Of a DNA stretch of 64,000 bases, positions 5,458 through 50,204 are shown piece after piece. The stretch is from assembly GCA_008933615.1 (NCBI GenBank), contig WBUR01000002.1, forward strand, positions 28,372-92,371, written 5' to 3'. The DNA comes from a bacterium. Its GTDB lineage: Bacteria; CLD3; SB21. Each line of letters starts with the position of its first letter. Within the stretch, counting starts at the first letter, position 1. Position numbers and translations under genes: made by a program. A model generated the notes under the pieces. That model had not been told where the DNA came from. It saw only the letters and a program-made list of their open reading frames with translations, and ran no database searches.

Positions 5458-7221
5458 ATGTTTCATACAAACCCTTATCAAATAGGCTTGAGAAAGATAT
5501 CTGTTCTAATGCGGCATATGCTGTTTAACTTTGCAAATACGAGTCTATTTTTATTGCTGTTAATTACTTCAGAAGCGATATCCCAGAATGTTCAAATTCA
5601 GGCGGCGCGAGAAAGGCTGAGTAGCGGCGATACAGCAGGCGCTCTGAGCCTCTTGGAAAGCGCAGCAAACGAATATCCTGAGTCGGCTGACGTCCACTAC
5701 TGGCTTGCGTTAGCATATTATAAGAGCGAACGAATCTCGGATGCACTGAACTCGGCCCAGAAGACATTCGCCATCAAGCCGAAACATCTATTGAACCGAA
5801 GCTTGTTACTTGATATTTACTTGAAAGAAGAAAATTTTACAGATGCAAAAGCTGAAGCTGAATTCTTGCTTAAGGAATCACCCAAAGATCCGGATCTTCG
5901 CTTTAGGTTTGCACAATGTTTGGCAGGTTTAAGTCAGTTTGAAGAAGCAAGTATTGAGCTTTCGAAACTGGAAGTGCATAAAAAGTTACCGTATAATTTG
6001 CAGTACAAAGTTCTCTTACTACTCGGGGATGTGTATGCCAAACAGAATATAAATGAAACGGCAATTGCCTATTATTCCAAAGCAGCGTCAGTAAACGGCA
6101 GTTCGGTTGATGTACATATAAAACTGGGCAAAACGTATTTCAAGGAACGCCAGTATAACGATGCGCTGAGGGAGTATCTAGAAGTCGTGCGGCTTGATTC
6201 AAATAACACCGAAGGCAATCTCAATGTAGGGTATATTTATTATAATGGAGGTAAATCAAATCCTCAGCAGTATGGGAACGCAATTTTTTATCTGCAGAAA
6301 TATGCGGCGCTAGAGCCGGCTGATCCTCGCGGATTTTTGTACATCGGAAAAAGTTTTCATGCGCTTAGAAGTTACTCCAACGCAATCCCACCGCTTCAGA
6401 CGGCTGCTCGGCTTGACAGTGGGGCAGGACGAGAAGAGACGATGAAATTTCTGGCTGAGTCGTATTCAGGAATTCAGGATCACGAAAAGACGATTAAGAT
6501 GTATGAAGAACTGGAGAAAAAACAGTATCCTTTGGACGCGATGGATTATGTCAGGTTAGGCCTTTCGTACAAAGCTATTAAAGATACGCTAAATACGGGC
6601 AAGTATTTTAGCAAAGCGGCATCCGCGGATTCGTTATACCATGTATTGCTTCAGGAAGTTGGGTTGATGTACTACGGAAGCAAAAATTTTGTCGAGGCGG
6701 CTCGCTGGTTCGAAAAACGAATTGCTGCAAACGCCAATGATACTGCCGTTGCCGGGACATGGCAGAGTTTAGGTTTATGCCAGTTTTATTCGGCAAAAAC
6801 ACGGCAGGATACATTAAAAGCGCTGTCATCAATTCGAAATGCGATACATTTAAAGCCGTATTCTCAATACTATTGGCTTATATTTGCACAAATCGCAGAG
6901 TATGCGGATTCCGCAGCGTCTGCAAAAATGGCTTATCAGCAGGTCGTAGATATTGATTCTAATAATGCTCAAGCTTATTTCGGGCTGGCAAGCATATCTT
7001 ACCGTTTAAAAAACAATGACGAAGCCATCACGTATTTCAAACAGGTTATCCGGCTCGACGACAAACATAAATACGCGCTGTATTATCTCGCCCAATGTTA
7101 CCTTAGGCAGAAAAATAATTTAGCAGCTATTCCATACCTGAGAAAATATGTCGAACTAGATCCAAACGGGCAATTCGCTGTAAATTCAAAACGTATTCTG
7201 AAGCAACTTGGCGCTAATTAA
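5458..7221 (+). CDS. TPR-repeat protein (secreted)
   Basis: Multiple 34-aa TPR-like repeats (…AYYSKAASVNGSSVDVHIKLGKTYF…, …AYFGLASISYRLKNNDEAITYFKQVIRLD…). Signal-like N-terminus; the real start may be the internal MRHML. Confidence 0.75.
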   Translation: MFHTNPYQIGLRKISVLMRHMLFNFANTSLFLLLLITSEAISQNVQIQAARERLSSGDTAGALSLLESAANEYPESADVHYWLALAYYKSERISDALNSAQKTFAIKPKHLLNRSLLLDIYLKEENFTDAKAEAEFLLKESPKDPDLRFRFAQCLAGLSQFEEASIELSKLEVHKKLPYNLQYKVLLLLGDVYAKQNINETAIAYYSKAASVNGSSVDVHIKLGKTYFKERQYNDALREYLEVVRLDSNNTEGNLNVGYIYYNGGKSNPQQYGNAIFYLQKYAALEPADPRGFLYIGKSFHALRSYSNAIPPLQTAARLDSGAGREETMKFLAESYSGIQDHEKTIKMYEELEKKQYPLDAMDYVRLGLSYKAIKDTLNTGKYFSKAASADSLYHVLLQEVGLMYYGSKNFVEAARWFEKRIAANANDTAVAGTWQSLGLCQFYSAKTRQDTLKALSSIRNAIHLKPYSQYYWLIFAQIAEYADSAASAKMAYQQVVDIDSNNAQAYFGLASISYRLKNNDEAITYFKQVIRLDDKHKYALYYLAQCYLRQKNNLAAIPYLRKYVELDPNGQFAVNSKRILKQLGAN

Positions 7222-7307: not shown

Positions 7308-8057
7308 ATGAAACAGTCCGTTTTTATGACGGTATTAATCGCAACGGCATTTCTGATCTCAGCGATTATTTATGAATTCGTTTTTGGCGCGGAAGGCGAT
7401 GCTTTCGGATTAAACTATATCTACAAAGGCGGATATTTGGTTGTTGTCCTCATGGTCCTGTCCATTATGGTTATAACGTTTGTATTTGAACGTATCTTTT
7501 CTTTGCGTAAAGCCAACGGCAGTGATGCTTTGCCGTTTTTTTTGAAAAAAGTTCAAAAAAACCTTCTTGAAAACAGCGTGGAATCCGCTGTAGAAGTGTG
7601 TGACCATCAAAAAGGATCGTGCGCAAATATTATCAAAATGGGACTTGAAAGTTTTATTCGTACTGGAAAGTTAGGCTTGACGATCGATAAGCGTGTTGCG
7701 GAAATGAAACGATCCATCGAAGAAGCTTCTTCGCTGGAAGTGCCGCTGTTGGAGAGGAATTTAATCGCGATTTCAACCATTGCATCCATTTCTACGATGG
7801 TCGGGTTGCTTGGAACGACTATCGGTATGATTCGCGCGTTCAAAGCCCTGGCACAATCCGGCGCTCCCGATGCGGTTCAACTTTCACTTGGAATTTCAGA
7901 GGCCCTGATCAATACAGCGGGCGGCCTGTTTGCAGCCATTGTTGCCATCGTCGCATATAATTATTTTGTTAATAAAGTGGATACGTATACGTATCTCATT
8001 GACGAAGCGAGCTATAACGTGGTCGAGATCTTGGCTAATAAGAATTCCGATAAGTAA
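7308..8057 (+). CDS. exbB: MotA/TolQ/ExbB proton-channel family protein
   Basis: Three TM helices. Conserved C-terminal helix motif ...MVGLLGTTIGMIRAFKAL... First gene of the exbB-exbD-exbD-tonB cluster. Confidence 0.85.
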   Translation: MKQSVFMTVLIATAFLISAIIYEFVFGAEGDAFGLNYIYKGGYLVVVLMVLSIMVITFVFERIFSLRKANGSDALPFFLKKVQKNLLENSVESAVEVCDHQKGSCANIIKMGLESFIRTGKLGLTIDKRVAEMKRSIEEASSLEVPLLERNLIAISTIASISTMVGLLGTTIGMIRAFKALAQSGAPDAVQLSLGISEALINTAGGLFAAIVAIVAYNYFVNKVDTYTYLIDEASYNVVEILANKNSDK

Positions 8058-8084
8058 ACGATTCAATTCCCATAACGAGGCAAC

Positions 8085-8567
8085 ATGGCGAAAATTAAAA
8101 AACATCGCGTTGGTGTTAATCTTGATATGACCCCCATGGTAGACGTAGCGTTTCTGTTGTTAACTTTTTTTATGCTGGCAACGACGTTCCGACCGCCCGA
8201 AGAAGTATCTGTCACGGTGCCGGATTCTCATTCGCAATTAAAGTTACCGGTTGCAAACGTAATCACGCTGTCTATAACGAAGGAAAAACGAATATGGATG
8301 GACGTGGATGCTCAGGTTGTTCGCGCCAAGATTTTTGGAATAGACTATGCGCAGAAAGCCGGCAAAGAAATTAGTATAGATGAACTAGCTTCGCTGATCA
8401 ATAAAGCGAGGTTGGAGAATCTTGCGATTCGCGGAGCGCAAGGAGCCATGCGTGTTGTCATTAAAGCAGATAAAGACGCGGACTACGACGTCGTGAGTGA
8501 CATCATTGATATATTACAGAAAACCAAGATCACAACGGTAAATTTTATCACCAATCTGGAACGATAA
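8085..8567 (+). CDS. exbD: ExbD/TolR biopolymer transport protein
   Basis: N-terminus ...DMTPMVDVAFLLLTFFMLATTF is the ExbD/TolR signature TM segment. Confidence 0.85.
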   Translation: MAKIKKHRVGVNLDMTPMVDVAFLLLTFFMLATTFRPPEEVSVTVPDSHSQLKLPVANVITLSITKEKRIWMDVDAQVVRAKIFGIDYAQKAGKEISIDELASLINKARLENLAIRGAQGAMRVVIKADKDADYDVVSDIIDILQKTKITTVNFITNLER

Positions 8568-8588
8568 TAAATAGGCGGAGTTTAAATT

Positions 8589-9167
8589 ATGTCTGAAATA
8601 GGAGCGGCACAGCCAAGGTCGCACGGCAAAGGGAAAAAAAGAAAACGACGGCTCGGCGTTCGTCTTGATATGACGCCGATGGTGGACGTAGCTTTTCTTC
8701 TTTTGACTTTTTTTATGTTAACAACGGCCTTTCGTTTGCCGCAAACCATGGAAATCAGCATTCCGGAAGACGATAAAGAAAGCAATCAAGTCAAGATCGC
8801 CGAATCAAATATTTTGCAAGTGCGGGTAACGGATGATAATACGATTTATTGGAATTTGGGAAATAATGCACCTCAAAAGACGGACTTAAACAATTTACGT
8901 CACCTATTTATTGAGCGAAGCGAGAAGAATATTCAAGACGGCAAAGGCGTTACAATTAAGGAGAAATATAAACTGATTATGCTCATCAAAATCGATAAAA
9001 AGGCCAAATACGAACATATGATCAATATTGTCGATGAACTGGATCTTGCGATGGTCTCGCTGAATGAGAAAAATAAGTTAACGGAAAGCGGCAGTAAATT
9101 ATCTCCCCGTTTTGCCTTTGCGCCGCTTACCGATCGGGATCTAACGGAGCTTAAGAAGGCGCCATGA
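8589..9167 (+). CDS. exbD: ExbD/TolR biopolymer transport protein (second paralogue)
   Basis: Repeats the same DMTPMVDVAFLLLTFFMLTTAF motif. Paralogue of the preceding gene. Confidence 0.85.
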   Translation: MSEIGAAQPRSHGKGKKRKRRLGVRLDMTPMVDVAFLLLTFFMLTTAFRLPQTMEISIPEDDKESNQVKIAESNILQVRVTDDNTIYWNLGNNAPQKTDLNNLRHLFIERSEKNIQDGKGVTIKEKYKLIMLIKIDKKAKYEHMINIVDELDLAMVSLNEKNKLTESGSKLSPRFAFAPLTDRDLTELKKAP

Positions 9168-9907
9168 GCAATATCGATGTCATAGATGGATTTGAGAGGG
9201 AAAACTACGGTTCGTATGTACTCAAAAAAGTCTATTCGAAGAACTTAGCAGCCGGATTAATTATCGGCGTGGCGTTGCACATCGGAGGAATCGCTTCCTA
9301 TTATATTTCGAATATCGTGATGCAGGAGGATAGGATAATCACCGTCAAATTCACCGACATTAATGAACTCCAAAATGCCCCGCCGTTACAGGATGCGCCG
9401 CCGCCGCCGACAGTAAAAATAGAAATCCCGGATGTGATCAAACCTGCTATGGGAATGCCTATCATCGTTCCGGATGAGGAGGCGTTGCCGGAATTAACCA
9501 TTCAAACTCAGGAAGAAATCAAAACGGATATTGCATCAAGTACTTTTGGAGATCAGGATGGTGAAATAAGGGTTGATATCAGCGGAGTGATACAGGGGAT
9601 TTCCGGAAATGATGAACCCGGCATGGATGAATTTGTTGTGGTCGAACAAAACCCGGTTCCGCTTGGAAGGCCGAATATCGTCTATCCGGAACTCGCAAAA
9701 AAAGCAGGCCTGGAAGGCAAGGTTGTTGTTAAGGCGCTTATCGACGAGACGGGGAGCGTGACAAAAATTGTTGTGATCGCCGGTGAAGATATTTTTAAAG
9801 ACGCCGCAGTGGCTGCGATCAAGCAAATGAAATTTAAGCCCGCCATCAACGGCAACAGGGCTGTCAAGGTCTGGATTACTTATCCTGTCGTGTTTCGGCT
9901 CAATTGA
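9164..9907 (+). CDS. tonB: TonB-family energy transducer
   Basis: N-terminal TM anchor, a Pro-rich spacer (APPLQDAPPPPTVKIEIP) and a C-terminal TonB domain (…PVYPELAKKAGLEGKVVVKALIDETGSV…KPAINGNRAV…). Start overlaps the upstream stop. Confidence 0.85.
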   Translation: MSNIDVIDGFERENYGSYVLKKVYSKNLAAGLIIGVALHIGGIASYYISNIVMQEDRIITVKFTDINELQNAPPLQDAPPPPTVKIEIPDVIKPAMGMPIIVPDEEALPELTIQTQEEIKTDIASSTFGDQDGEIRVDISGVIQGISGNDEPGMDEFVVVEQNPVPLGRPNIVYPELAKKAGLEGKVVVKALIDETGSVTKIVVIAGEDIFKDAAVAAIKQMKFKPAINGNRAVKVWITYPVVFRLN

Positions 9908-11013: not shown

Positions 11014-11472
11014 TTAGAACTTGATATCAATCTGTTTCGCTTTAGCTTCTTCCGCTTTAGGCAGTACGATGGTCAAAACGCCGTCTTTGTAATTAGCATC
11101 GATCTTATCGGACTTGACGAGCGACGGCAGACGGAATGACCTGCTGAAAGACCCGTAACTTCTTTCCACGCGATGGAAATTCTCTTCTTTCGTCTCGCTT
11201 TCCTGTTTCTTTTCTCCCTGAACGGTGAGAACGTTTTCCTGCAGCGTGATCTTTACGCCGTCTTTGGTGACGCCGGGCAATTCAATATGAACGGTGTATT
11301 TGTCCTTGCCCTCCGTGATGTCGGCTGACGGATACCAGTTCTGTAAACCGTTAAATGTCTCATCGTCGCCGGTGAAGAAGTTCGATAACATCTTACTCAT
11401 TTCTTTTTGCACGTTGAAGAGGTCGGTCAATACGCCTCTTTCGTTGATCGGGTTATACCTGATGATTGACAT
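11014..11472 (-). CDS. Hsp20/alpha-crystallin family small heat-shock protein
   Basis: Alpha-crystallin domain (…KDKYTVHIELPGVTKDGVKITLQENVLTVQGEK…SFRLPSLVKSDKIDANYKDGVLTIVLPK). Confidence 0.85.
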   Translation of the reverse strand: MSIIRYNPINERGVLTDLFNVQKEMSKMLSNFFTGDDETFNGLQNWYPSADITEGKDKYTVHIELPGVTKDGVKITLQENVLTVQGEKKQESETKEENFHRVERSYGSFSRSFRLPSLVKSDKIDANYKDGVLTIVLPKAEEAKAKQIDIKF

Positions 11473-11499
11473 GGTTATCCCTCCTTTTGTTTGTTGGTT

Positions 11500-11892
11500 T
11501 TAGTTAAAGTTAATTTTAATTTCACGAGGTTTAGCCTCTTCCTTTTTAGTTAAATTCATCTGTAAAAATCCGTTCTTCCATGACGCATCTATGTTTTGAG
11601 TATCAACGGTTTTTCCCAGCGTGAATATTCTTCGATAATTTCTTTTGTAGATCTCCGATCGTATCAATTCGCCTTCTTCCTGAATATTCATTTTGCCTTC
11701 GATCAAAAGCTGACCGTTTTTCACTTGCACGCTCAAAGTGTCCTTATTCACACCCGGCATCTCTAAGAGCAGGTGATAATGATCTTTGCTCTCGCGTATG
11801 TCGCAACGCGGCTGAACGTAGTAATAGCCATTTTCGTGTTTTACAACATCACGCTGATCTGTTTTGACTTCGTTGAAAGTTTTTGTCTCCAT
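11500..11892 (-). CDS. Hsp20/alpha-crystallin family small heat-shock protein
   Basis: …DHYHLLLEMPGVNKDTLSVQVKNGQLLIEGK…FTLGKTVDTQNIDASWKNGFLQMNL. Tandem with the downstream hsp20. Confidence 0.85.
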   Translation of the reverse strand: METKTFNEVKTDQRDVVKHENGYYYVQPRCDIRESKDHYHLLLEMPGVNKDTLSVQVKNGQLLIEGKMNIQEEGELIRSEIYKRNYRRIFTLGKTVDTQNIDASWKNGFLQMNLTKKEEAKPREIKINFN

Positions 11893-13124: not shown

Positions 13125-13946
13125 ATGGTTGACAAGGCTTATCATTCAAAAATTCGTTCTTTCTTGTTTATTTCCTTTGGATTGGTTCTGACGTTTATAC
13201 TCGTTTTAACAGCAATACCAATTTCGCTTTTTGCGCCGATGGGAAAGACAATGGCTGCGATAGAAAAATTTTGGTCGGGTGTCCTCGTACGCTTTTCTAT
13301 GATGCGAGTTGTGGCTAAGGGGATGGAGCATATCAAAAGCGATAAAACGTATATATTTATTTGCAACCATCAAAGCGCGTTGGACATCCCGTTAATGATG
13401 TTTTACGCGCCGAAACAACTGCGGATGATATTTAAGAAAGAACTCCTATATATACCATTCTTTGGACTTGTGCTGTGGTTGCTCAAGTTCATTCCGATTG
13501 ACCGTGGAAATAGGGAAAAAGCTATAACGAGTTTAAAAAAAGCTGCCAAACGCATCCACGATGGAATCAATATTGTTATTTACGCCGATGGCACCAGAAG
13601 CGTGAATGGAGAATTGAAGCCGTTTAAAAAAGGAGCTTTTCTATTGGCCATCGACGCGCAGGTGGACATTATTCCGGTAACGATCAGTGGAACCATAAAC
13701 GTAATGCATAAATTCGGCGGAATTTTGGACGTCAAATTCGGCCAGGAAGTTCATATCATTTTTGATCCTCCCATTTCCACATCGTCTTTTGTGTTGGAAC
13801 AGAAAGACGAATTAAAGACATTAGTTAATTCACAGATTGCCGGTAACTACGAAGTGATAAAACATCTGTCCAAGATCACCGACACGAACTTATTAGATAA
13901 AGTTACCCGATTTGAACAAAAGCAGCATTCGGTTACCGCTGCATAA
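13125..13946 (+). CDS. plsC: 1-acyl-sn-glycerol-3-phosphate acyltransferase
   Basis: Acyltransferase motif I FICNHQSALD. Motifs FKKGAF and IPVTISGT are also present. Confidence 0.8.
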   Translation: MVDKAYHSKIRSFLFISFGLVLTFILVLTAIPISLFAPMGKTMAAIEKFWSGVLVRFSMMRVVAKGMEHIKSDKTYIFICNHQSALDIPLMMFYAPKQLRMIFKKELLYIPFFGLVLWLLKFIPIDRGNREKAITSLKKAAKRIHDGINIVIYADGTRSVNGELKPFKKGAFLLAIDAQVDIIPVTISGTINVMHKFGGILDVKFGQEVHIIFDPPISTSSFVLEQKDELKTLVNSQIAGNYEVIKHLSKITDTNLLDKVTRFEQKQHSVTAA

Positions 13947-13968
13947 CATTCATATAAAGGAAATACCG

Positions 13969-14694
13969 ATGAAAGGAATTATTTTAGCCGGAGGGCTCGG
14001 CTCACGCTTACAACCTCTGACTCTGATCACCAACAAACATTTGCTTCCCGTATATAATAAGCCGATGATCTACTATCCGATTGAAAAATTAGTTGAAGCG
14101 GGAATTGACGACATCGTTTTGGTAACCGGTGGAAGTTATGCAGGCGATTTTCTGCGGTTGCTTGGAAATGGAAAAGAATTTAACTTATCTCACATCAACT
14201 ATGTGTATCAAAAGGGTGAAGGCGGAATTGCAGAAGCGCTGGGTTTGTGCGAGCATTACGCGAAAAATGACTCCATCGCCGTAATATTAGGCGATAATAT
14301 TTTTGAGGATAGTATCAAAAATGCAGTCGCTGATTATGAAAAAACGAACAAAGGCGGCAAGATATTCCTGAAAGAAGTGCACGATCCGCAGCGTTTCGGT
14401 GTGGCGGAAGTTAAGGGTGAAAAAGTTATCGGCATTGAAGAAAAGCCAAAGATCCCGAAATCCAACTATGCGGTGACCGGAATCTACATGTATGATGCGG
14501 AAGTTTTCGATGTGATTAAAACGTTGAAACCATCCGGACGAGGCGAGCTGGAAATTACCGATGTGAACAATCACTACATCCGAAAAAACGCAATGAAGTA
14601 CGAATTCATGAACGGATGGTGGACAGATGCCGGAACGTTTGAGTCGCTGTTCCATGCAAGCGGGCTGGTTGCAAAGTCTTTGAATGAGAAATAA
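13969..14694 (+). CDS. Sugar-phosphate nucleotidyltransferase (glucose-1-phosphate thymidylyltransferase-like, short form)
   Basis: N-terminus MKGIILAGGLGSRLQPLTLITNKHLLPVYNKPMIYYPIE is the G-rich nucleotidyltransferase signature. The start is chosen at the ATG after AAGGAAAT; the ORF track start at 13912 overlaps plsC. Confidence 0.75.
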   Translation: MKGIILAGGLGSRLQPLTLITNKHLLPVYNKPMIYYPIEKLVEAGIDDIVLVTGGSYAGDFLRLLGNGKEFNLSHINYVYQKGEGGIAEALGLCEHYAKNDSIAVILGDNIFEDSIKNAVADYEKTNKGGKIFLKEVHDPQRFGVAEVKGEKVIGIEEKPKIPKSNYAVTGIYMYDAEVFDVIKTLKPSGRGELEITDVNNHYIRKNAMKYEFMNGWWTDAGTFESLFHASGLVAKSLNEK

Positions 14695-14803: not shown

Positions 14804-15955
14804 ATGAAGAAACTTGGGATTTTCGGTTCAACAGGTTCGATTGGAAAGAACGCGCTTCAGGTTGTGCGGAATAACCCGGATCGTTTTAAGGTTGTATGTT
14901 TAACGGCGAACAACAATGTTGACCTTTTAGTTCAGCAGGCATTGCAATTCATTCCGGAAACTGTCTGTATTTCAGATCAATCTGGTTTTAAAATTGTTAG
15001 AGAAAGACTGCGGCCGACCGGTATTCAAGTTCTTTGTGGTGCGGAAGCGTTGTCTGATCTTGCGCGCGAGGCTAATTTTAATATGATGGTAGGGGCCATT
15101 GTCGGATTTGCCGGGCTCCTGCCGACGATTGAAGCGATAAAGGCCGGTAAAGATATTGCGCTTGCGAATAAGGAAACTTTGGTGGTCGCCGGAGAGATCG
15201 TAAACCGATTACTGGAAGAGCATTGCGTTAGACTCATACCGATTGACAGCGAACACAGCGCGCTGTTCCAGTGCCTCGTCGGCGAGGATAGAACTAGCAT
15301 TCGAAAGATAATTCTAACGGCATCGGGCGGGCCTTTTTTGCATAAGCCCAAAGAAGAATTCGGTAACATCACCGTGTCGGAAGCGCTGAAACATCCAAAT
15401 TGGAAAATGGGTTCAAAAATCACAATCGACTCGGCAACGCTTATGAATAAAGGGCTTGAGGTTATTGAAGCGCACTGGCTTTTCGGGCTCTCACCGGACA
15501 AAATAGACGTTGCAATTCATCCTCAGTCCATCATTCATTCAATGGTGGAATTTGTAGACGGATCTACAAAAGCGCAAATGGGCGCTCCCGATATGAAAGT
15601 TCCGATTCAATACGCATTATCATATCCCGAACGGATTAAGAACGGTTTTAACGCATTTAATTTCCGTAAAACAAATCGGCTGGATTTTTTTAAACCGGAT
15701 CGCACCAAGTTCAAGTGCCTGCCCTTAGCTTACGATGCCTTGAAAGAACTTGGGACCATGCCGGCAGTTTTGAATGCGGCAAATGAAGTAGTCGTAGAAA
15801 GTTTCCTTAAAGAAAAAATTAAGTTTGTTGATATTCCAAAATATATCAAAAAGGCGATGCAGGCGCATGACGTTATTCATGATCCTGGCCTGGGATGTAT
15901 TTTGGAGGCTGATCAATGGGCAAGAAGCTATGTAAAAAAATCATTAGGTTTATAA
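14804..15955 (+). CDS. dxr: 1-deoxy-D-xylulose 5-phosphate reductoisomerase
   Basis: MKKLGIFGSTGSIGKNALQVV… gives the NADPH-binding N-terminus. Motifs …LANKETLVVAGE…IPIDSEHSALFQCL… are Dxr hallmarks. Confidence 0.9.
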   Translation: MKKLGIFGSTGSIGKNALQVVRNNPDRFKVVCLTANNNVDLLVQQALQFIPETVCISDQSGFKIVRERLRPTGIQVLCGAEALSDLAREANFNMMVGAIVGFAGLLPTIEAIKAGKDIALANKETLVVAGEIVNRLLEEHCVRLIPIDSEHSALFQCLVGEDRTSIRKIILTASGGPFLHKPKEEFGNITVSEALKHPNWKMGSKITIDSATLMNKGLEVIEAHWLFGLSPDKIDVAIHPQSIIHSMVEFVDGSTKAQMGAPDMKVPIQYALSYPERIKNGFNAFNFRKTNRLDFFKPDRTKFKCLPLAYDALKELGTMPAVLNAANEVVVESFLKEKIKFVDIPKYIKKAMQAHDVIHDPGLGCILEADQWARSYVKKSLGL

Positions 15956-15980: not shown

Positions 15981-17471
15981 ATGGGTTCTGCGTTATTTGA
16001 TTTTATTATTCCATTTATTGTGGTCTTAGGCGTATTGGTTTTTATTCACGAATTGGGCCACCATCTGGCGGCGAAGCTTTTCGGGATGAAGGTAGACGCT
16101 TTTTCTTTAGGATTTCCTCCGCGCGCATGGGGGTTTCGATGGAGCACGAAAAGACTGCGTCCGAAATTCATGCGTGACTTAACTGCCGCGATCCAGGACA
16201 ATGTAACCTTCAGGCAGCTTCACGAACGCCTGGTCTGCAAAAAAAGCTCCACAGCTGAAGATGAGTCGATCCGAATATTAACTGAATTGTTTAATGTTCA
16301 AGTCGAAGAATCGAAGATCCAAGTGTTAAACAAAAAAGGAAAATCCGAAGAACGTATTGAAAGTAAAACAAACGTCGTAATTGCGGATGGCGGGATATCG
16401 AAAAAGTTTTTACAGGATGAATTAGATACGATGTATAAGACTTTCACATCTGATGCCGATCTTGTGGATAGTTTTCACCGGTATAGTGAAATTCAGGATG
16501 ATAAGATTTTTAAAGATAAATACCAGACGGACTATTGCGTTTCCTGGATTCCTTTGGGTGGTTATTGCAAGATCAACGGCATGATCGATGAAAGTTTCGA
16601 CGTCGATAGCATGAAGGAAGGTGTCGCTAAGCCCTGGGAATACCGCGCTAAACCTATATGGCAGAGGATCATTGCCATCACCGGCGGCGTTGTATTTAAT
16701 TTTCTCCTGGCGGTTATCATATTTGCCGTGATCGCCTTAAGCCACGGTTTGCCGGATATGGACAAATACGATGCATATAAAATGGGAACTACGATTCAAA
16801 CGGTAGGTCCGGGAAGTCCTGCTGAAAAAGCCGGTTTGCTGGCCGGCGATAAAATTACCGCCATCAACGATACGCCTGTGGATGAGTGGAGAAGTTTAGT
16901 TGAGATCATTCACAACCGGCCGGAAGAGAAAATTCGCGTGACTTATCAAAGAGGCGAATCTGTTTTAAGCGCTGAGATCATACCGAATAGAGTAAAAACG
17001 CAAACCGCCGAAGGAATAAAAGAAATCGGACAGATCGGGATCGGCCCCTCGCCGTTACCTGAATTTACTCGCGAAGCATCTTTTGCTGAATCGATGCAAT
17101 TTGGTTTTATGAATACCTACCGCGTTTCGGCGCTAATTCTCGTCAATCTCAAACAGATCATTCTTGGCGAACAATCATTTAAAGACAGCATGGGTGGTCC
17201 GATTGCCATTGTGAAGATGACCGGGGAAGTAAAACAACAACAAGGTTGGGCTGGCATTTGGGGTTTTATGGCGCTGCTCAGCATTAGTTTGGCTGTATTC
17301 AATCTTTTTCCAATCCCGGCCCTGGACGGCGGGCACTTGATGTTCTTAATTATTGAAGGGGTCATTCGACGTCCTTTGTCGATCAAATTTAAGTTATATG
17401 CACAGCAGGCCGGTATGGCGATTTTGCTGACTTTTATTGCGTATGTTACGTTCAATGATATCATGAAATGA
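15981..17471 (+). CDS. rseP: RseP-family site-2 zinc metalloprotease with a PDZ domain and an unusual insertion of about 130 aa after TM1
   Basis: HELGHH zinc motif in TM1. Also …IPLGGYCKINGM…, a PDZ domain (…GSPAEKAGLLAGDKITAINDTPV…) and the C-terminal LDGGHLMFL motif. See the separate finding on the insertion. Confidence 0.85.
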   Translation: MGSALFDFIIPFIVVLGVLVFIHELGHHLAAKLFGMKVDAFSLGFPPRAWGFRWSTKRLRPKFMRDLTAAIQDNVTFRQLHERLVCKKSSTAEDESIRILTELFNVQVEESKIQVLNKKGKSEERIESKTNVVIADGGISKKFLQDELDTMYKTFTSDADLVDSFHRYSEIQDDKIFKDKYQTDYCVSWIPLGGYCKINGMIDESFDVDSMKEGVAKPWEYRAKPIWQRIIAITGGVVFNFLLAVIIFAVIALSHGLPDMDKYDAYKMGTTIQTVGPGSPAEKAGLLAGDKITAINDTPVDEWRSLVEIIHNRPEEKIRVTYQRGESVLSAEIIPNRVKTQTAEGIKEIGQIGIGPSPLPEFTREASFAESMQFGFMNTYRVSALILVNLKQIILGEQSFKDSMGGPIAIVKMTGEVKQQQGWAGIWGFMALLSISLAVFNLFPIPALDGGHLMFLIIEGVIRRPLSIKFKLYAQQAGMAILLTFIAYVTFNDIMK

Positions 17472-17483
17472 TCGGTTTTAAGA

Positions 17484-18194
17484 TTGCAGAATTTTCACGG
17501 AGATTTTGACTCGGTATTGTTCGATTGTGACAGTACGCTGACAAAAATTGAAGGGATAGACGAACTAGCCGCGCTCAAAAATGTTAAGGACGAGGTGAGC
17601 CGCATAACGAATGACGCGATGGAAGGACGGCTGAGTTTTCAAAGCGCATTAGAAATGCGTTTATCAATTATCAGACCTTCCCACGCAGAATTGCTCGCGG
17701 TAGGGCAAAAATATATTGATGAGGTTGTAGATGGGGCTGTAGAGCTGATAGACGTGCTGCGCCAATCCGGAAAAGACGTTTATATACTCAGCGGCGGTTT
17801 CCAGGATTCAGTCAGATTGTTTGCAGAATTTCTGGGTGTTGAATTAAAACATGTTTTTGCCAATGAAATTCTTTTCGAAGCGGATGGAAATTACTCCGGC
17901 TTTAACGGTGAGTCGGCGTTGGCAAGGTCTCATGGAAAAGCTGAGATTGTTAGAACGATCAAAGGATCAAAAGTGATGATAGGAGACGGAGCCAGTGATC
18001 TGGAAACCCGGAACGATGTTGACCTTTTCATCGGATATTGCGGAGTTCAGAAACGAAAAATTATCGAGGAGAATGCAGATATTGTAGTTTACGATTCAAA
18101 CCTAATGTCAGTTGCTCCTTTGATTATGAATAGCAACTTCATGTTGACAGAGTCGGATCAAATTAGATTTAATAGTATAGATTTGCGTAGATAA
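17484..18194 (+). CDS. HAD-superfamily phosphoserine phosphatase-like (SerB family)
   Basis: Motif I FDCDSTLTKIEGIDELA. Downstream motifs SGGF and GDGASD are typical of HAD-IB SerB. Confidence 0.7.
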   Translation: MQNFHGDFDSVLFDCDSTLTKIEGIDELAALKNVKDEVSRITNDAMEGRLSFQSALEMRLSIIRPSHAELLAVGQKYIDEVVDGAVELIDVLRQSGKDVYILSGGFQDSVRLFAEFLGVELKHVFANEILFEADGNYSGFNGESALARSHGKAEIVRTIKGSKVMIGDGASDLETRNDVDLFIGYCGVQKRKIIEENADIVVYDSNLMSVAPLIMNSNFMLTESDQIRFNSIDLRR

Positions 18195-18215: not shown

Positions 18216-21700
<3,485 letters not shown>

Positions 21701-27676: not shown

Positions 27677-28819
27677 ATGGATTTCAAATTGAGCGATGAG
27701 CAAGAAATGATCAGGCAAACTGCACGGGATTTCGCACAGGAGCACTTGGCTCCGCATGCGGCGGAACGTGATGAAAAACAGTTTTTCCCAAAAGAAGTTA
27801 TTAAACAGATGGGCGAACTTGGATTTTTGGGCATGATGGTAGGCGAAAAATGGGGAGGTTTTGCCTCAGATTCCATTTCATACGTACAAGTAATAATCGA
27901 ACTTGCAAAAGCCGATGCTTCCGCCGCGGTCATAGCTTCGGTTAATAACTCCCTTGTTTGTTTTAACATTGAAAAGTATGGTACGGATATCCAGAAAGAG
28001 AAATATCTCAAACCTCTCGCGTCCGGACAAGCGCTCGGTGCGTATTCCTTATCGGAGGCGGTCTCGGGAAGCGACGCTGCAGGTTTGATTTGTTATGCGG
28101 AGAACAAAGGCGATCATTATCTGGTAAATGGAACTAAACTATGGGTAACGAATGGCCACCATTCAGATTATGTTGTGTGTTTTATTAGAACCGATAAGTC
28201 AAACAAAACAAAGGGTATAAGTGCATTTATAGTAGATAAAGCTTTCCCTGGGTTTAAAGTTGGCAAAAAAGAGAATAAACTGGGTATTCGCGCTTCCGAC
28301 ACGACGGAACTTGTGTTTGAAAATTGCAAAGTTCCAAAGGAAAATCTTCTGGGCCAAGAGGGTATGGGTTTTAAGATTGCCATGGAAACGCTGGACGGCG
28401 GTCGAATCGGAATAGCCGCGCAAGCGATAGGCATCGCGGAAGCCGCTCTTGATGAATCCGTTAAGTATACCAAAGCGCGGGAGCAGTTCGGCCAGCCGAT
28501 TGCAAAATTCCAGGCAAATGAATTTAAAATCGCAGACATGGCCATGCGTATTGACGCTTCCAAGCTGCTGCTTTACCGCGCCTGCTGGCTGAAAGATCAA
28601 GGCCAAAAATTCGGCAAAGAAGCGGCGATGGCTAAATTGTTTGCTTCTGAAACGGCAATGTGGGCAACGACCGAAGCCGTACAGATGCACGGGGGTTATG
28701 GTTATACAAAAGAATACCCTGTAGAACGTTTCATGCGCGACGCAAAAATAACTGAAATTTACGAAGGCACGTCGGAAATTCAGCGCATTGTAATCGCCCG
28801 TAATGTTTTGAACTGGTAG
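27677..28819 (+). CDS. Acyl-CoA dehydrogenase (short/branched-chain type)
   Basis: Full-length ACAD architecture: …LGFLGMMVGEKWGG…, YSLSEAVSGSDAAG, …GIAAQAIGIAEAAL…, and the C-terminal …QMHGGYGYTKEYPVERFMRDAKITEIYEGTSEIQR. Confidence 0.9.
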   Translation: MDFKLSDEQEMIRQTARDFAQEHLAPHAAERDEKQFFPKEVIKQMGELGFLGMMVGEKWGGFASDSISYVQVIIELAKADASAAVIASVNNSLVCFNIEKYGTDIQKEKYLKPLASGQALGAYSLSEAVSGSDAAGLICYAENKGDHYLVNGTKLWVTNGHHSDYVVCFIRTDKSNKTKGISAFIVDKAFPGFKVGKKENKLGIRASDTTELVFENCKVPKENLLGQEGMGFKIAMETLDGGRIGIAAQAIGIAEAALDESVKYTKAREQFGQPIAKFQANEFKIADMAMRIDASKLLLYRACWLKDQGQKFGKEAAMAKLFASETAMWATTEAVQMHGGYGYTKEYPVERFMRDAKITEIYEGTSEIQRIVIARNVLNW

Positions 28820-50019: not shown

Positions 50020-50133
50020 GAAAAGCACCTCCAATGGGAGTTAATAAGCATTTTTTACACAATCGAATGTATTGTTTTGTCAATTTAAATGCAACAAATA
50101 AAAAAGAGTAGGCGTCAACTACTCTTTGTTTTG

Positions 50134-50204
50134 CTGGAATGCAGGGATTCGAACCCCGATTAATGGATCCAGAGTCCATTGTCCTACCATTGGACGACAT
50201 TCCA
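50134..50204 (-). tRNA. tRNA-Gln (anticodon CUG)
   Basis: Hand-folded. Acceptor TGGAATG/CATTCCA gives a U1:A72 pair, typical of tRNA-Gln. D-arm GTCC-AATGGTA-GGAC. Anticodon arm ATGGA-CTCTGGA-TCCAT, with CTG at positions 34-36. T-arm CGGGG-TTCGAAT-CCCTG. Discriminator G. CCA is not encoded. Position 37 is G, which is atypical, so the isotype needs confirmation. Confidence 0.75.

Follow-up and report, generated by a model that had tools for sequence, protein, structure and literature searches.

We analyzed a 64-kb window (64,000 nucleotides; positions 28,372 to 92,371 of contig WBUR01000002.1, GenBank assembly GCA_008933615.1), which contains a gene for a site-2 protease (S2P) of the RseP type with an additional domain inserted into its membrane-reentrant β (MRE-β) sheet. 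The gene, rseP, lies at 15981..17471 on the forward strand, as do all features for which no strand is given below. It encodes a protein of 496 aa, recognized from its open reading frame (ORF), Pfam, TIGR00054, and structure alignments as a group I S2P that contains a single PDZ domain and the insert. Its start is located 25 bases 3' of dxr (14804..15955), the ORF for DXP reductoisomerase (Pfam DXP_reductoisom).

The protease and its catalytic core

The assignment to the RseP family is well supported by profile searches. Pfam Peptidase_M50 (PF02163) matched with an E-value of 2e-57 (194 bits against a cutoff of 27.2), the match being split around the insert with its best stretch at residues 179-484, and the NCBIfam model TIGR00054 ("RIP metalloprotease RseP") scored 246 bits with a cutoff of 147.55. 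The cutoff of the E. coli-type sigma-E equivalog (NF008046/PRK10779) was not reached (170.7 versus 477 bits), and, therefore, the protein is not filed as a sigma-E-specific equivalog. No CBS domain was found by Pfam, either on the protein or, at E-values up to 10, on 22 insert sequences, and the protein is not a group III S2P of the SpoIVFB/MjS2P type.

The catalytic core is intact. The zinc-binding and catalytic motif HELGH lies in the first transmembrane helix (TM1; residues 23-27, 16047..16061), with H23, E24, and H27 being near-invariant in alignments of 33 and 66 sequences, and the TM3 motif NLFPIPALDGG was located by alignment at residues 441-451 (17301..17333), where N441, P444, P446, L448, D449, G450, and G451 are invariant in the multiple alignment. 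Motif alignment together with the published E. coli data equates N441 with the Asn clamp N394 and D449 with the zinc ligand D402 (PMC9401612). The single periplasmic PDZ domain (residues 267-333, 16779..16979) was detected with Pfam PDZ_6 (E 1.6e-12), PDZ_2, and PDZ, and it resembles PDZ-C structures of RseP in Foldseek comparisons (target-normalized TM-score 0.8-0.93).

A full-length AlphaFold2 model (mean predicted local distance difference test score, pLDDT, of 89.3; predicted template modeling score of 0.78) matched the structures of RasP (9a6w), E. coli RseP (7w6x), and Aquifex RseP (9j82/9j83) with Foldseek E-values of 1e-25 to 1e-29. The best match was the integrative model of Bacillus subtilis RasP (E 1.1e-29), with 422 residues in chain 9a6w_A compared to 496 here; RasP, a single-PDZ group I S2P, is not known to have an insertion in its reentrant sheet. 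With the RseP proteins of E. coli, Kangiella koreensis, and Aquifex aeolicus (7w6x, 7w6y, 9j82), the protein shares HExxH in TM1, a four-stranded MRE-β sheet with GFx and PLGGY, a periplasmic PDZ domain, the Asn clamp and LDG motif of TM3, and TM4. Every defining feature that can be checked at this level is present and, judged by sequence, the protein is a member of the group I S2P/RseP family. It differs from classical RseP in having one PDZ domain instead of two and in the strand 2-3 turn of the MRE-β sheet, which comprises 3-5 residues in those 3 RseP proteins and here holds a 126-aa domain that is predicted to be folded and cytoplasmic.

Position and extent of the insertion

In RseP, the region between TM1 and TM2 forms the four-stranded MRE-β sheet, with strand 1 at R39-F44 and strand 4 at G67-V70 as the substrate-binding edge (PMC9401612), and K54/H55 of the Kangiella protein constitute a β-turn of this sheet (Imaizumi et al. 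2022, PMC9401612). In the protein described here, strands 1-2 comprise residues 38-55 (VDAFSLGFPPRAWGFRWS; 16092..16145) and strands 3-4 residues 183-198 (TDYCVSWIPLGGYCKI; 16527..16574), as assigned by DSSP on the model (E38-54 and E183-198), with strand 4 being the substrate-binding edge strand (PMC9401612, PMC11864173). The sheet segments SLGFPP and PLGGY are conserved, and T183, Y185, P191, G193, G194, and K197 are invariant in the multiple alignment. The inserted domain breaks the sheet after strand 2 and before strand 3 and was delimited by alignments and motif spacing to residues 56-182 (T56-Q182; 16146..16526), a net gain of 126 aa. A preliminary description, made from the DNA letters and a list of ORFs, had reported an RseP insertion of about 130 aa after HExxH at 16120-16540; this interval encloses the in-frame insertion delimited here, and the insert peptide quoted at that time is exact.

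These borders are supported by several comparisons. In the alignment to the Aquifex RseP structure 9j82, residues 9-55 correspond to chain positions 3-49 and residues 182 onward to chain positions 50 onward, leaving approximately 126 residues unmatched. When the insert was deleted, the resulting construct aligned to Aquifex RseP without gaps and to the Kangiella and E. coli proteins with a single 1-residue gap at the junction. The junction itself aligned within 1 residue of K54/H55 of Kangiella RseP and within the T52-G56 turn of E. coli RseP. Furthermore, the span from PPR to GGY, which is 24 residues in insert-free relatives (PPRAFGKKIG-DTDYCVSWIPLGGY), extends to 150 residues here in the multiple alignment. 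The spacing from HExxH to P[LIV]GG was exactly 42 in 183 of 224 related RseP proteins, 58 in 2, and 162-168 in 31, with 8 proteins lacking one of the spacing motifs, mostly through truncation. Since the length of this loop is otherwise rigidly fixed, the insert represents a discrete and exceptional feature.

From the published strand ranges (PMC9401612) and an N-out topology, we infer that the insert occupies the strand 2-3 turn on the cytoplasmic face of the protein. This agrees with the preliminary description, which had placed it on the cytoplasmic side of the membrane, in the loop between TM1 and TM2 from which the membrane-reentrant β region is built. Taken for its descriptive content, i.e., a real, conserved, and folded cytoplasmic insertion, this finding is very probably correct.

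The nearest positional precedent is an engineered one. In KkRseP(54-PA14-55), a 14-residue PA tag was placed in the β-turn of Kangiella RseP and proteolytic activity was retained (Imaizumi et al. 2022, PMC9401612), showing that the site is permissive. The tag and the insert described here lie within 1 residue of the same turn, the former being an artificial 14-residue epitope and the latter a natural 126-aa domain found in 2 lineages. A natural domain insertion in the reentrant sheet is not mentioned in PMC9401612, PMC11864173, or PMC11486902, which deal with RseP and SpoIVFB; no literature search aimed at such an insertion was made.

It is also worth noting that shorter natural insertions were observed at this turn. 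Two Ignavibacteria-type proteins (P0168 and P0181) carry 16 extra residues (…GWNKKTKFSFGKLADDLDLEGNTDY…), and a metagenome-assembled genome of the Bacteroidaceae encodes approximately 15 extra residues (…SSKRSRWFTRLFPKMKDKETDY…; contig L008, 4497-5897), all of them unrelated to the 126-aa insert. Insertions thus appear to have a natural hot spot in the strand 2-3 turn.

Independent assemblies and selection on the insert

The identical protein is encoded on a 161-kb ENA contig (Bacteria_p_CLD3_contig_351), and orthologs with 52-85% identity and lengths of 489-508 aa were found in independent ENA, Logan, JGI, and NCBI assemblies. Every one of these close orthologs bears the same insert. The corresponding contigs share the gene order dxr-rseP-(CsgG/TPR)-tgt-rhodanese-def, and the pairing of dxr with rseP is retained in all insert-bearing orthologs.

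Codon comparison with 3 orthologs revealed proportions of nonsynonymous differences (pN) of 0.20-0.32 in the insert, 0.11-0.25 in the PDZ domain, and 0.03-0.06 in the TM core, with proportions of synonymous differences (pS) of 0.72-0.93. Because synonymous sites are saturated, pN/pS was used in place of dN/dS. As pN is well below pS, the insert is a translated sequence on which purifying selection acts, and its rate is close to that of the PDZ domain. No other-frame ORF of at least 60 aa overlaps the insert.

These data bear directly on the notion that the insert is an artifact or a selfish element, i.e., a chimeric assembly, an intein, or the remnant of a mobile element within rseP. A slightly lower GC content (0.39 in the insert versus 0.46 overall; 0.41 versus 0.49 at third codon positions) could be taken as a point in favor of this notion, but it results from a composition rich in K, E, D, N, and I. 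A chimera, which the preliminary description had raised as a concern, is ruled out because assemblies made independently from many samples share this insert and the codon at which it lies. The low pN relative to pS likewise argues against an artifact, and neither direct or inverted repeats nor mobile-element scars were found at the insert borders. Furthermore, none of the 22 insert sequences matched an intein/HINT or transposase family in Pfam. The predicted fold (6 helices and 1 hairpin) is not the all-β HINT fold, and although the insert begins with Thr (T56), it ends in KYQ before T183 and lacks the C-terminal His-Asn of inteins. We therefore regard an artifactual or selfish origin as effectively refuted, with a negligible residual probability.

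Distribution in two lineages

Insert-bearing RseP proteins fall into 2 lineages, whose inserts are homologous. Lineage A, which includes the protein encoded in the window, comprises 27 clusters at 90% identity and has one PDZ domain. Lineage B comprises 6 clusters (P0028, P0123, P0032, P0033, P0124, and P0121) of 529-558 aa with 2 PDZ domains, labeled by NCBI as Ignavibacteriales or Bacteroidota. Their relationship was assessed with a simple neighbor-joining distance tree (200 bootstraps) from 249 core columns, from which the insert and the PDZ region were excluded. Lineage A was monophyletic in 99% of bootstraps and sister to an insert-free protein of 381 aa (P0029) in 100%. Lineage B was monophyletic in 98% and was placed among ordinary two-PDZ Ignavibacteria-type proteins of 437 aa. 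A common clade of both lineages was recovered in none of the 200 bootstraps.

In both lineages alike, dxr adjoins rseP. This is as expected for a housekeeping copy, and the gene is the housekeeping RseP copy of an uncultured bacterium whose contig is labeled as phylum CLD3. On the contig encoding the insert-free sister P0029 (L091), a 73-aa ORF (5721-5942) lies between dxr and rseP, and a gene of the sigma-70 family (7576-8445) is found 2 genes 3' of rseP; the gene content around dxr-rseP thus differs from that of the insert-bearing clade.

Two histories can account for this pattern. Strand 2 and the insert may have moved together from one RseP gene to another, recombining across the highly conserved flanks (FSLGFPPRA ... 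TDYCxSWxPxGG), or this segment may be old, with many precise losses. Of the two, transfer is the more parsimonious. Since the divergence of the insert between the lineages is saturated (approximately 23-25% identity), a comparison of insert and core does not resolve the timing of a transfer.

The insert appears to be very rare globally and is universal in its own clade. The spacing counts in the 224 proteins and the distribution of orthologs therefore bear out the proposal in the preliminary description that it is a lineage-specific elaboration. While all members of the clade carry it, they are annotated simply as "RIP metalloprotease RseP", so the domain is not an already annotated feature of the phylum.

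Predicted fold and conservation

The insert is modeled as 3 helices, a long β-hairpin, and 3 further helices. Helices α1-α3 (residues 59-72, 75-86, and 93-103; 16155..16289) precede the hairpin (residues 104-116 and 122-134; 16290..16382), which was found in both the in-context and the isolated model, and helices α4-α6 (residues 145-156, 159-172, and 174-180; 16413..16520) run straight into strand 3; all elements were assigned by DSSP. [quoted passage not shown] When the insert was modeled alone from 22 insert sequences, the mean pLDDT was 87.5 and the secondary structure was identical, and, therefore, the insert is predicted to form an α/β domain that folds autonomously. In the insert alignment, homologs differ by indels at the tip of the hairpin and in the loop that follows it, which is consistent with this model. 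The characterization of the insert as charged and helix-prone in the preliminary description was accurate for the charge (23 K+R and 23 D+E in 127 residues, with an isoelectric point of 6.7) and held in part for the helices: 6 of them are predicted, but as components of an α/β fold with a long hairpin and not merely of a charged helical loop.

Residues L59, K62, F63, D66, F77, F104, L161, and I171 are conserved in all carriers, with L59, K62, and F63 being invariant and D66 and F77 nearly so. Several of these belong to a conserved basic motif, (T/S)(K/R)(K/R)L(R/K/Q)xKFxxD, with which helix α1 opens.

In the model, no flexible linkers separate the domain from the sheet, as α1 starts 4 residues past strand 2 and α6 ends 2 residues ahead of strand 3. 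Furthermore, strand 2 itself differs between insert-bearing and insert-free proteins. Columns 52-54 carry F, R, and W, respectively, at frequencies of 93-100% in lineage A, 60-80% in lineage B, and at most 3% among 188 insert-free relatives, where K, K/Q, and I, respectively, predominate. Compared with these 188 relatives, F52, R53, W54, and F443 are the only core positions that co-vary with the presence of the insert. The specificity of F52/R53/W54 for insert carriers suggests direct packing of the domain against the sheet at its cytoplasmic end. By motif alignment, F443 presumably corresponds to F396 of E. coli RseP, likewise a Phe, and was set aside for this reason.

The basic motif lies directly past strand 2, at the interface of membrane and cytoplasm, and K62 within it is invariant. 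Together with the Lys-rich tip of the hairpin (NKKGK) in lineage A, this could indicate a membrane anchor, in which the basic helix (TKRLRPKF) and the tip bind anionic lipid head groups. Alternatively, the hairpins, with their 13-residue strands and polar distal half, might pair to dimerize RseP. However, in lineage B the distal half is shortened by deletions of 4-8 residues, the tip is acidic or neutral, and the net charge of the insert is -5 to -10, and even in lineage A the net charge is around zero, all of which speaks against such roles. As to oligomerization, RseP-type S2Ps are not known to require it. Both functions are thus considered very doubtful.

Searches for relatives of the insert

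Sequence searches did not connect the insert to any known domain. Among the 22 insert sequences, no Pfam family was common to more than 2 members and no NCBIfam family was matched by more than 1. A sequence profile search of the PDB with the insert yielded a compositional match alone (8s05, E 0.019), which was rejected because the alignment involves a repetitive helical tail without consistent structure. No structural neighbor of the insert was found, with Foldseek against BFVD returning nothing at E-values of 1e-3 or below.

An HMMER profile of the insert, searched against 1.84 billion representative sequences, identified 2 proteins, P0010 (502 aa) and P0121 (546 aa), both of which are RseP proteins, the scores being 124 and 74 bits. 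A word-index profile search with the insert alignment gave 0 matches; as it missed even the RseP parents, this is ascribed to a limit of the method for short, fast-evolving profiles. A profile search of genome contigs with the insert and its flanks listed at least 600 matches, among which there were ordinary RseP loci only. Two partial contig matches from this type of search (L003 and L008) had looked insert-like, but they were found to contain no insert or merely approximately 15 extra residues.

By these searches, the inserted domain is outside every described family, and, as modeled, it is a candidate new fold. A more far-reaching scenario, in which a new fold arose or was captured in RseP, spread between unrelated RseP lineages by domain-level recombination across the conserved strand flanks, and gave the protease a cytoplasmic docking input, appears improbable as a whole.

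Other genes in the window

The CsgG/TPR gene named in the conserved gene order encodes a 655-aa protein (18216-20183) in which numerous TPR repeats come after a CsgG-like domain at the N-terminus, and within it 3 copies of a long module each end in a near-identical motif. This gene was also observed 3' of rseP in the closest orthologous contigs. In the window, a gene for a HAD-family hydrolase (17484-18194) lies between rseP and the CsgG/TPR gene; it is absent from this position in the 3 closest orthologous contigs, in which the CsgG/TPR gene comes immediately after rseP. This looks like a recent local gain or loss.

Upstream of dxr, an NTP_transferase ORF with a TTG start extends over 260 aa (13912-14694). 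The public gene call of 241 aa (13969-14694) uses an internal start at MKGIILAGG, and this shorter version is probably correct. Further upstream are 2 adjacent HSP20 small heat-shock genes with an ExbB-ExbD-ExbD-TonB_C cluster beside them (11014-11892, reverse strand, and 8085-9907, forward strand); these coordinates were converted from the gene calls of the identical contig with an offset of +7980. A tRNA-Gln(CTG) gene (50133-50204, reverse strand) is the sole RNA gene found in the 64-kb window, in which no other Rfam family reached its gathering score.

Proposed function of the inserted domain

Known mechanisms of substrate selection by RseP-type proteases are periplasmic and intramembrane, namely the PDZ size filter, the PCT (PDZ C-terminal)/TM4 gate, and the strand at the edge of the MRE-β sheet. 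The cytoplasmic face of RseP is where the complex of anti-sigma and sigma factor sits and where water enters. With the catalytic machinery intact, ordinary S2P chemistry is expected, and the mechanism would be unchanged with respect to zinc, HExxH, LDG, Asn clamp, and strand addition. The insert, in turn, may form a fixed cytoplasmic platform beside the substrate exit, attached to the very sheet whose edge strand pairs with the substrate. Such a platform could dock the cytoplasmic portion of a substrate, e.g., an anti-sigma domain along with its sigma factor, or else a regulator, and docking would add cytoplasmic specificity or a regulatory input to the protease.

Published work on related systems is compatible with this proposal. 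The N-terminal tail of the substrate follows the edge strand on the cytoplasmic side (PMC11864173), and processing of Pro-sigmaK by SpoIVFB requires a cytoplasmic interdomain linker, which the CBS domain positions and which packs on the cytoplasmic subdomain of this substrate (PMC11486902). The linker and CBS module of SpoIVFB is the nearest functional analogy, and the logic of a docking platform in RseP would be similar. Like the protein described here, the group III proteases SpoIVFB and MjS2P combine an S2P core with an extra cytoplasmic module. In these proteases, however, the module is a C-terminal domain of a known family (CBS), whereas the insert is internal, sits within the reentrant sheet, and has no Pfam match or structural neighbor. 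CBS domains are thought to respond to nucleotides.

Several observations weigh against a platform. A conserved surface patch, Cys/His cluster, or nucleotide-binding motif is absent from the insert alignments of both lineages, and lineage B does not retain NKKGK at the hairpin tip. Instead, the residues conserved in both lineages are almost all part of the hydrophobic core (L59, F63, F77, F104, L161, and I171), with K62 and D66 in addition. The AlphaFold models rest on the 22 insert sequences and, for the full-length protein, on an alignment of 66 sequences with 29 insert rows, and the orientation of the domain relative to the substrate exit derives from topology alone. The suggestion in the preliminary description that the domain could gate substrate access or bind a regulator was not substantiated, since neither a ligand-binding nor a catalytic motif is conserved and the analysis identified no partner, ligand, or substrate.

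Moreover, the insert evolves approximately 4-5 times faster than the TM core, a rate that is also compatible with a passenger domain under loose constraint. Such a domain would play no part in signaling and would be tolerated at a permissive surface turn, where it stabilizes the MRE-β sheet or is neutral to it, and selection would keep nothing but its fold, thereby sparing the protease from disturbance. The several-fold higher pN and the confinement of conservation to hydrophobic core residues are in agreement with this explanation, as are the unrelated insertions of 16 aa (P0168/P0181) and approximately 15 aa (L008) at the same turn and the activity of Kangiella RseP with a 14-residue PA tag at the equivalent site (PMC9401612). 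On the other hand, the 126 aa persist at divergences as deep as 52% overall identity and approximately 25% insert identity, with decay, truncation, or loss in none of the 27 and 6 clusters of the 2 lineages, and the insert is also present on a second RseP backbone. This long retention and the second backbone argue for a selected benefit, and we consider a passenger or buttress rather unlikely.

The best overall explanation in our view is that an orphan, autonomously folding domain was inserted into the strand 2-3 turn, where it would serve as a cytoplasmic platform; we assign this reading a probability of roughly 40%. Its functional component, docking or regulation by the platform, is proposed tentatively and by analogy.

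Significance

The RseP protease itself is already known, and what is new is a conserved, unannotated domain insertion within it. Its biological impact is limited for now, as the carriers are uncultured (CLD3 and the Ignavibacteria-type group) and the function is inferred from comparison. The strand 2-3 turn emerges as a natural and not only an engineered insertion site, which makes it useful for tags, cryo-EM fiducials, and sensors. If the proposed platform function is true, the domain would be the first accessory module on the cytoplasmic face of a group I S2P, and it would provide regulated intramembrane proteolysis with a second checkpoint on the cytoplasmic side, beside the periplasmic PDZ size filter.

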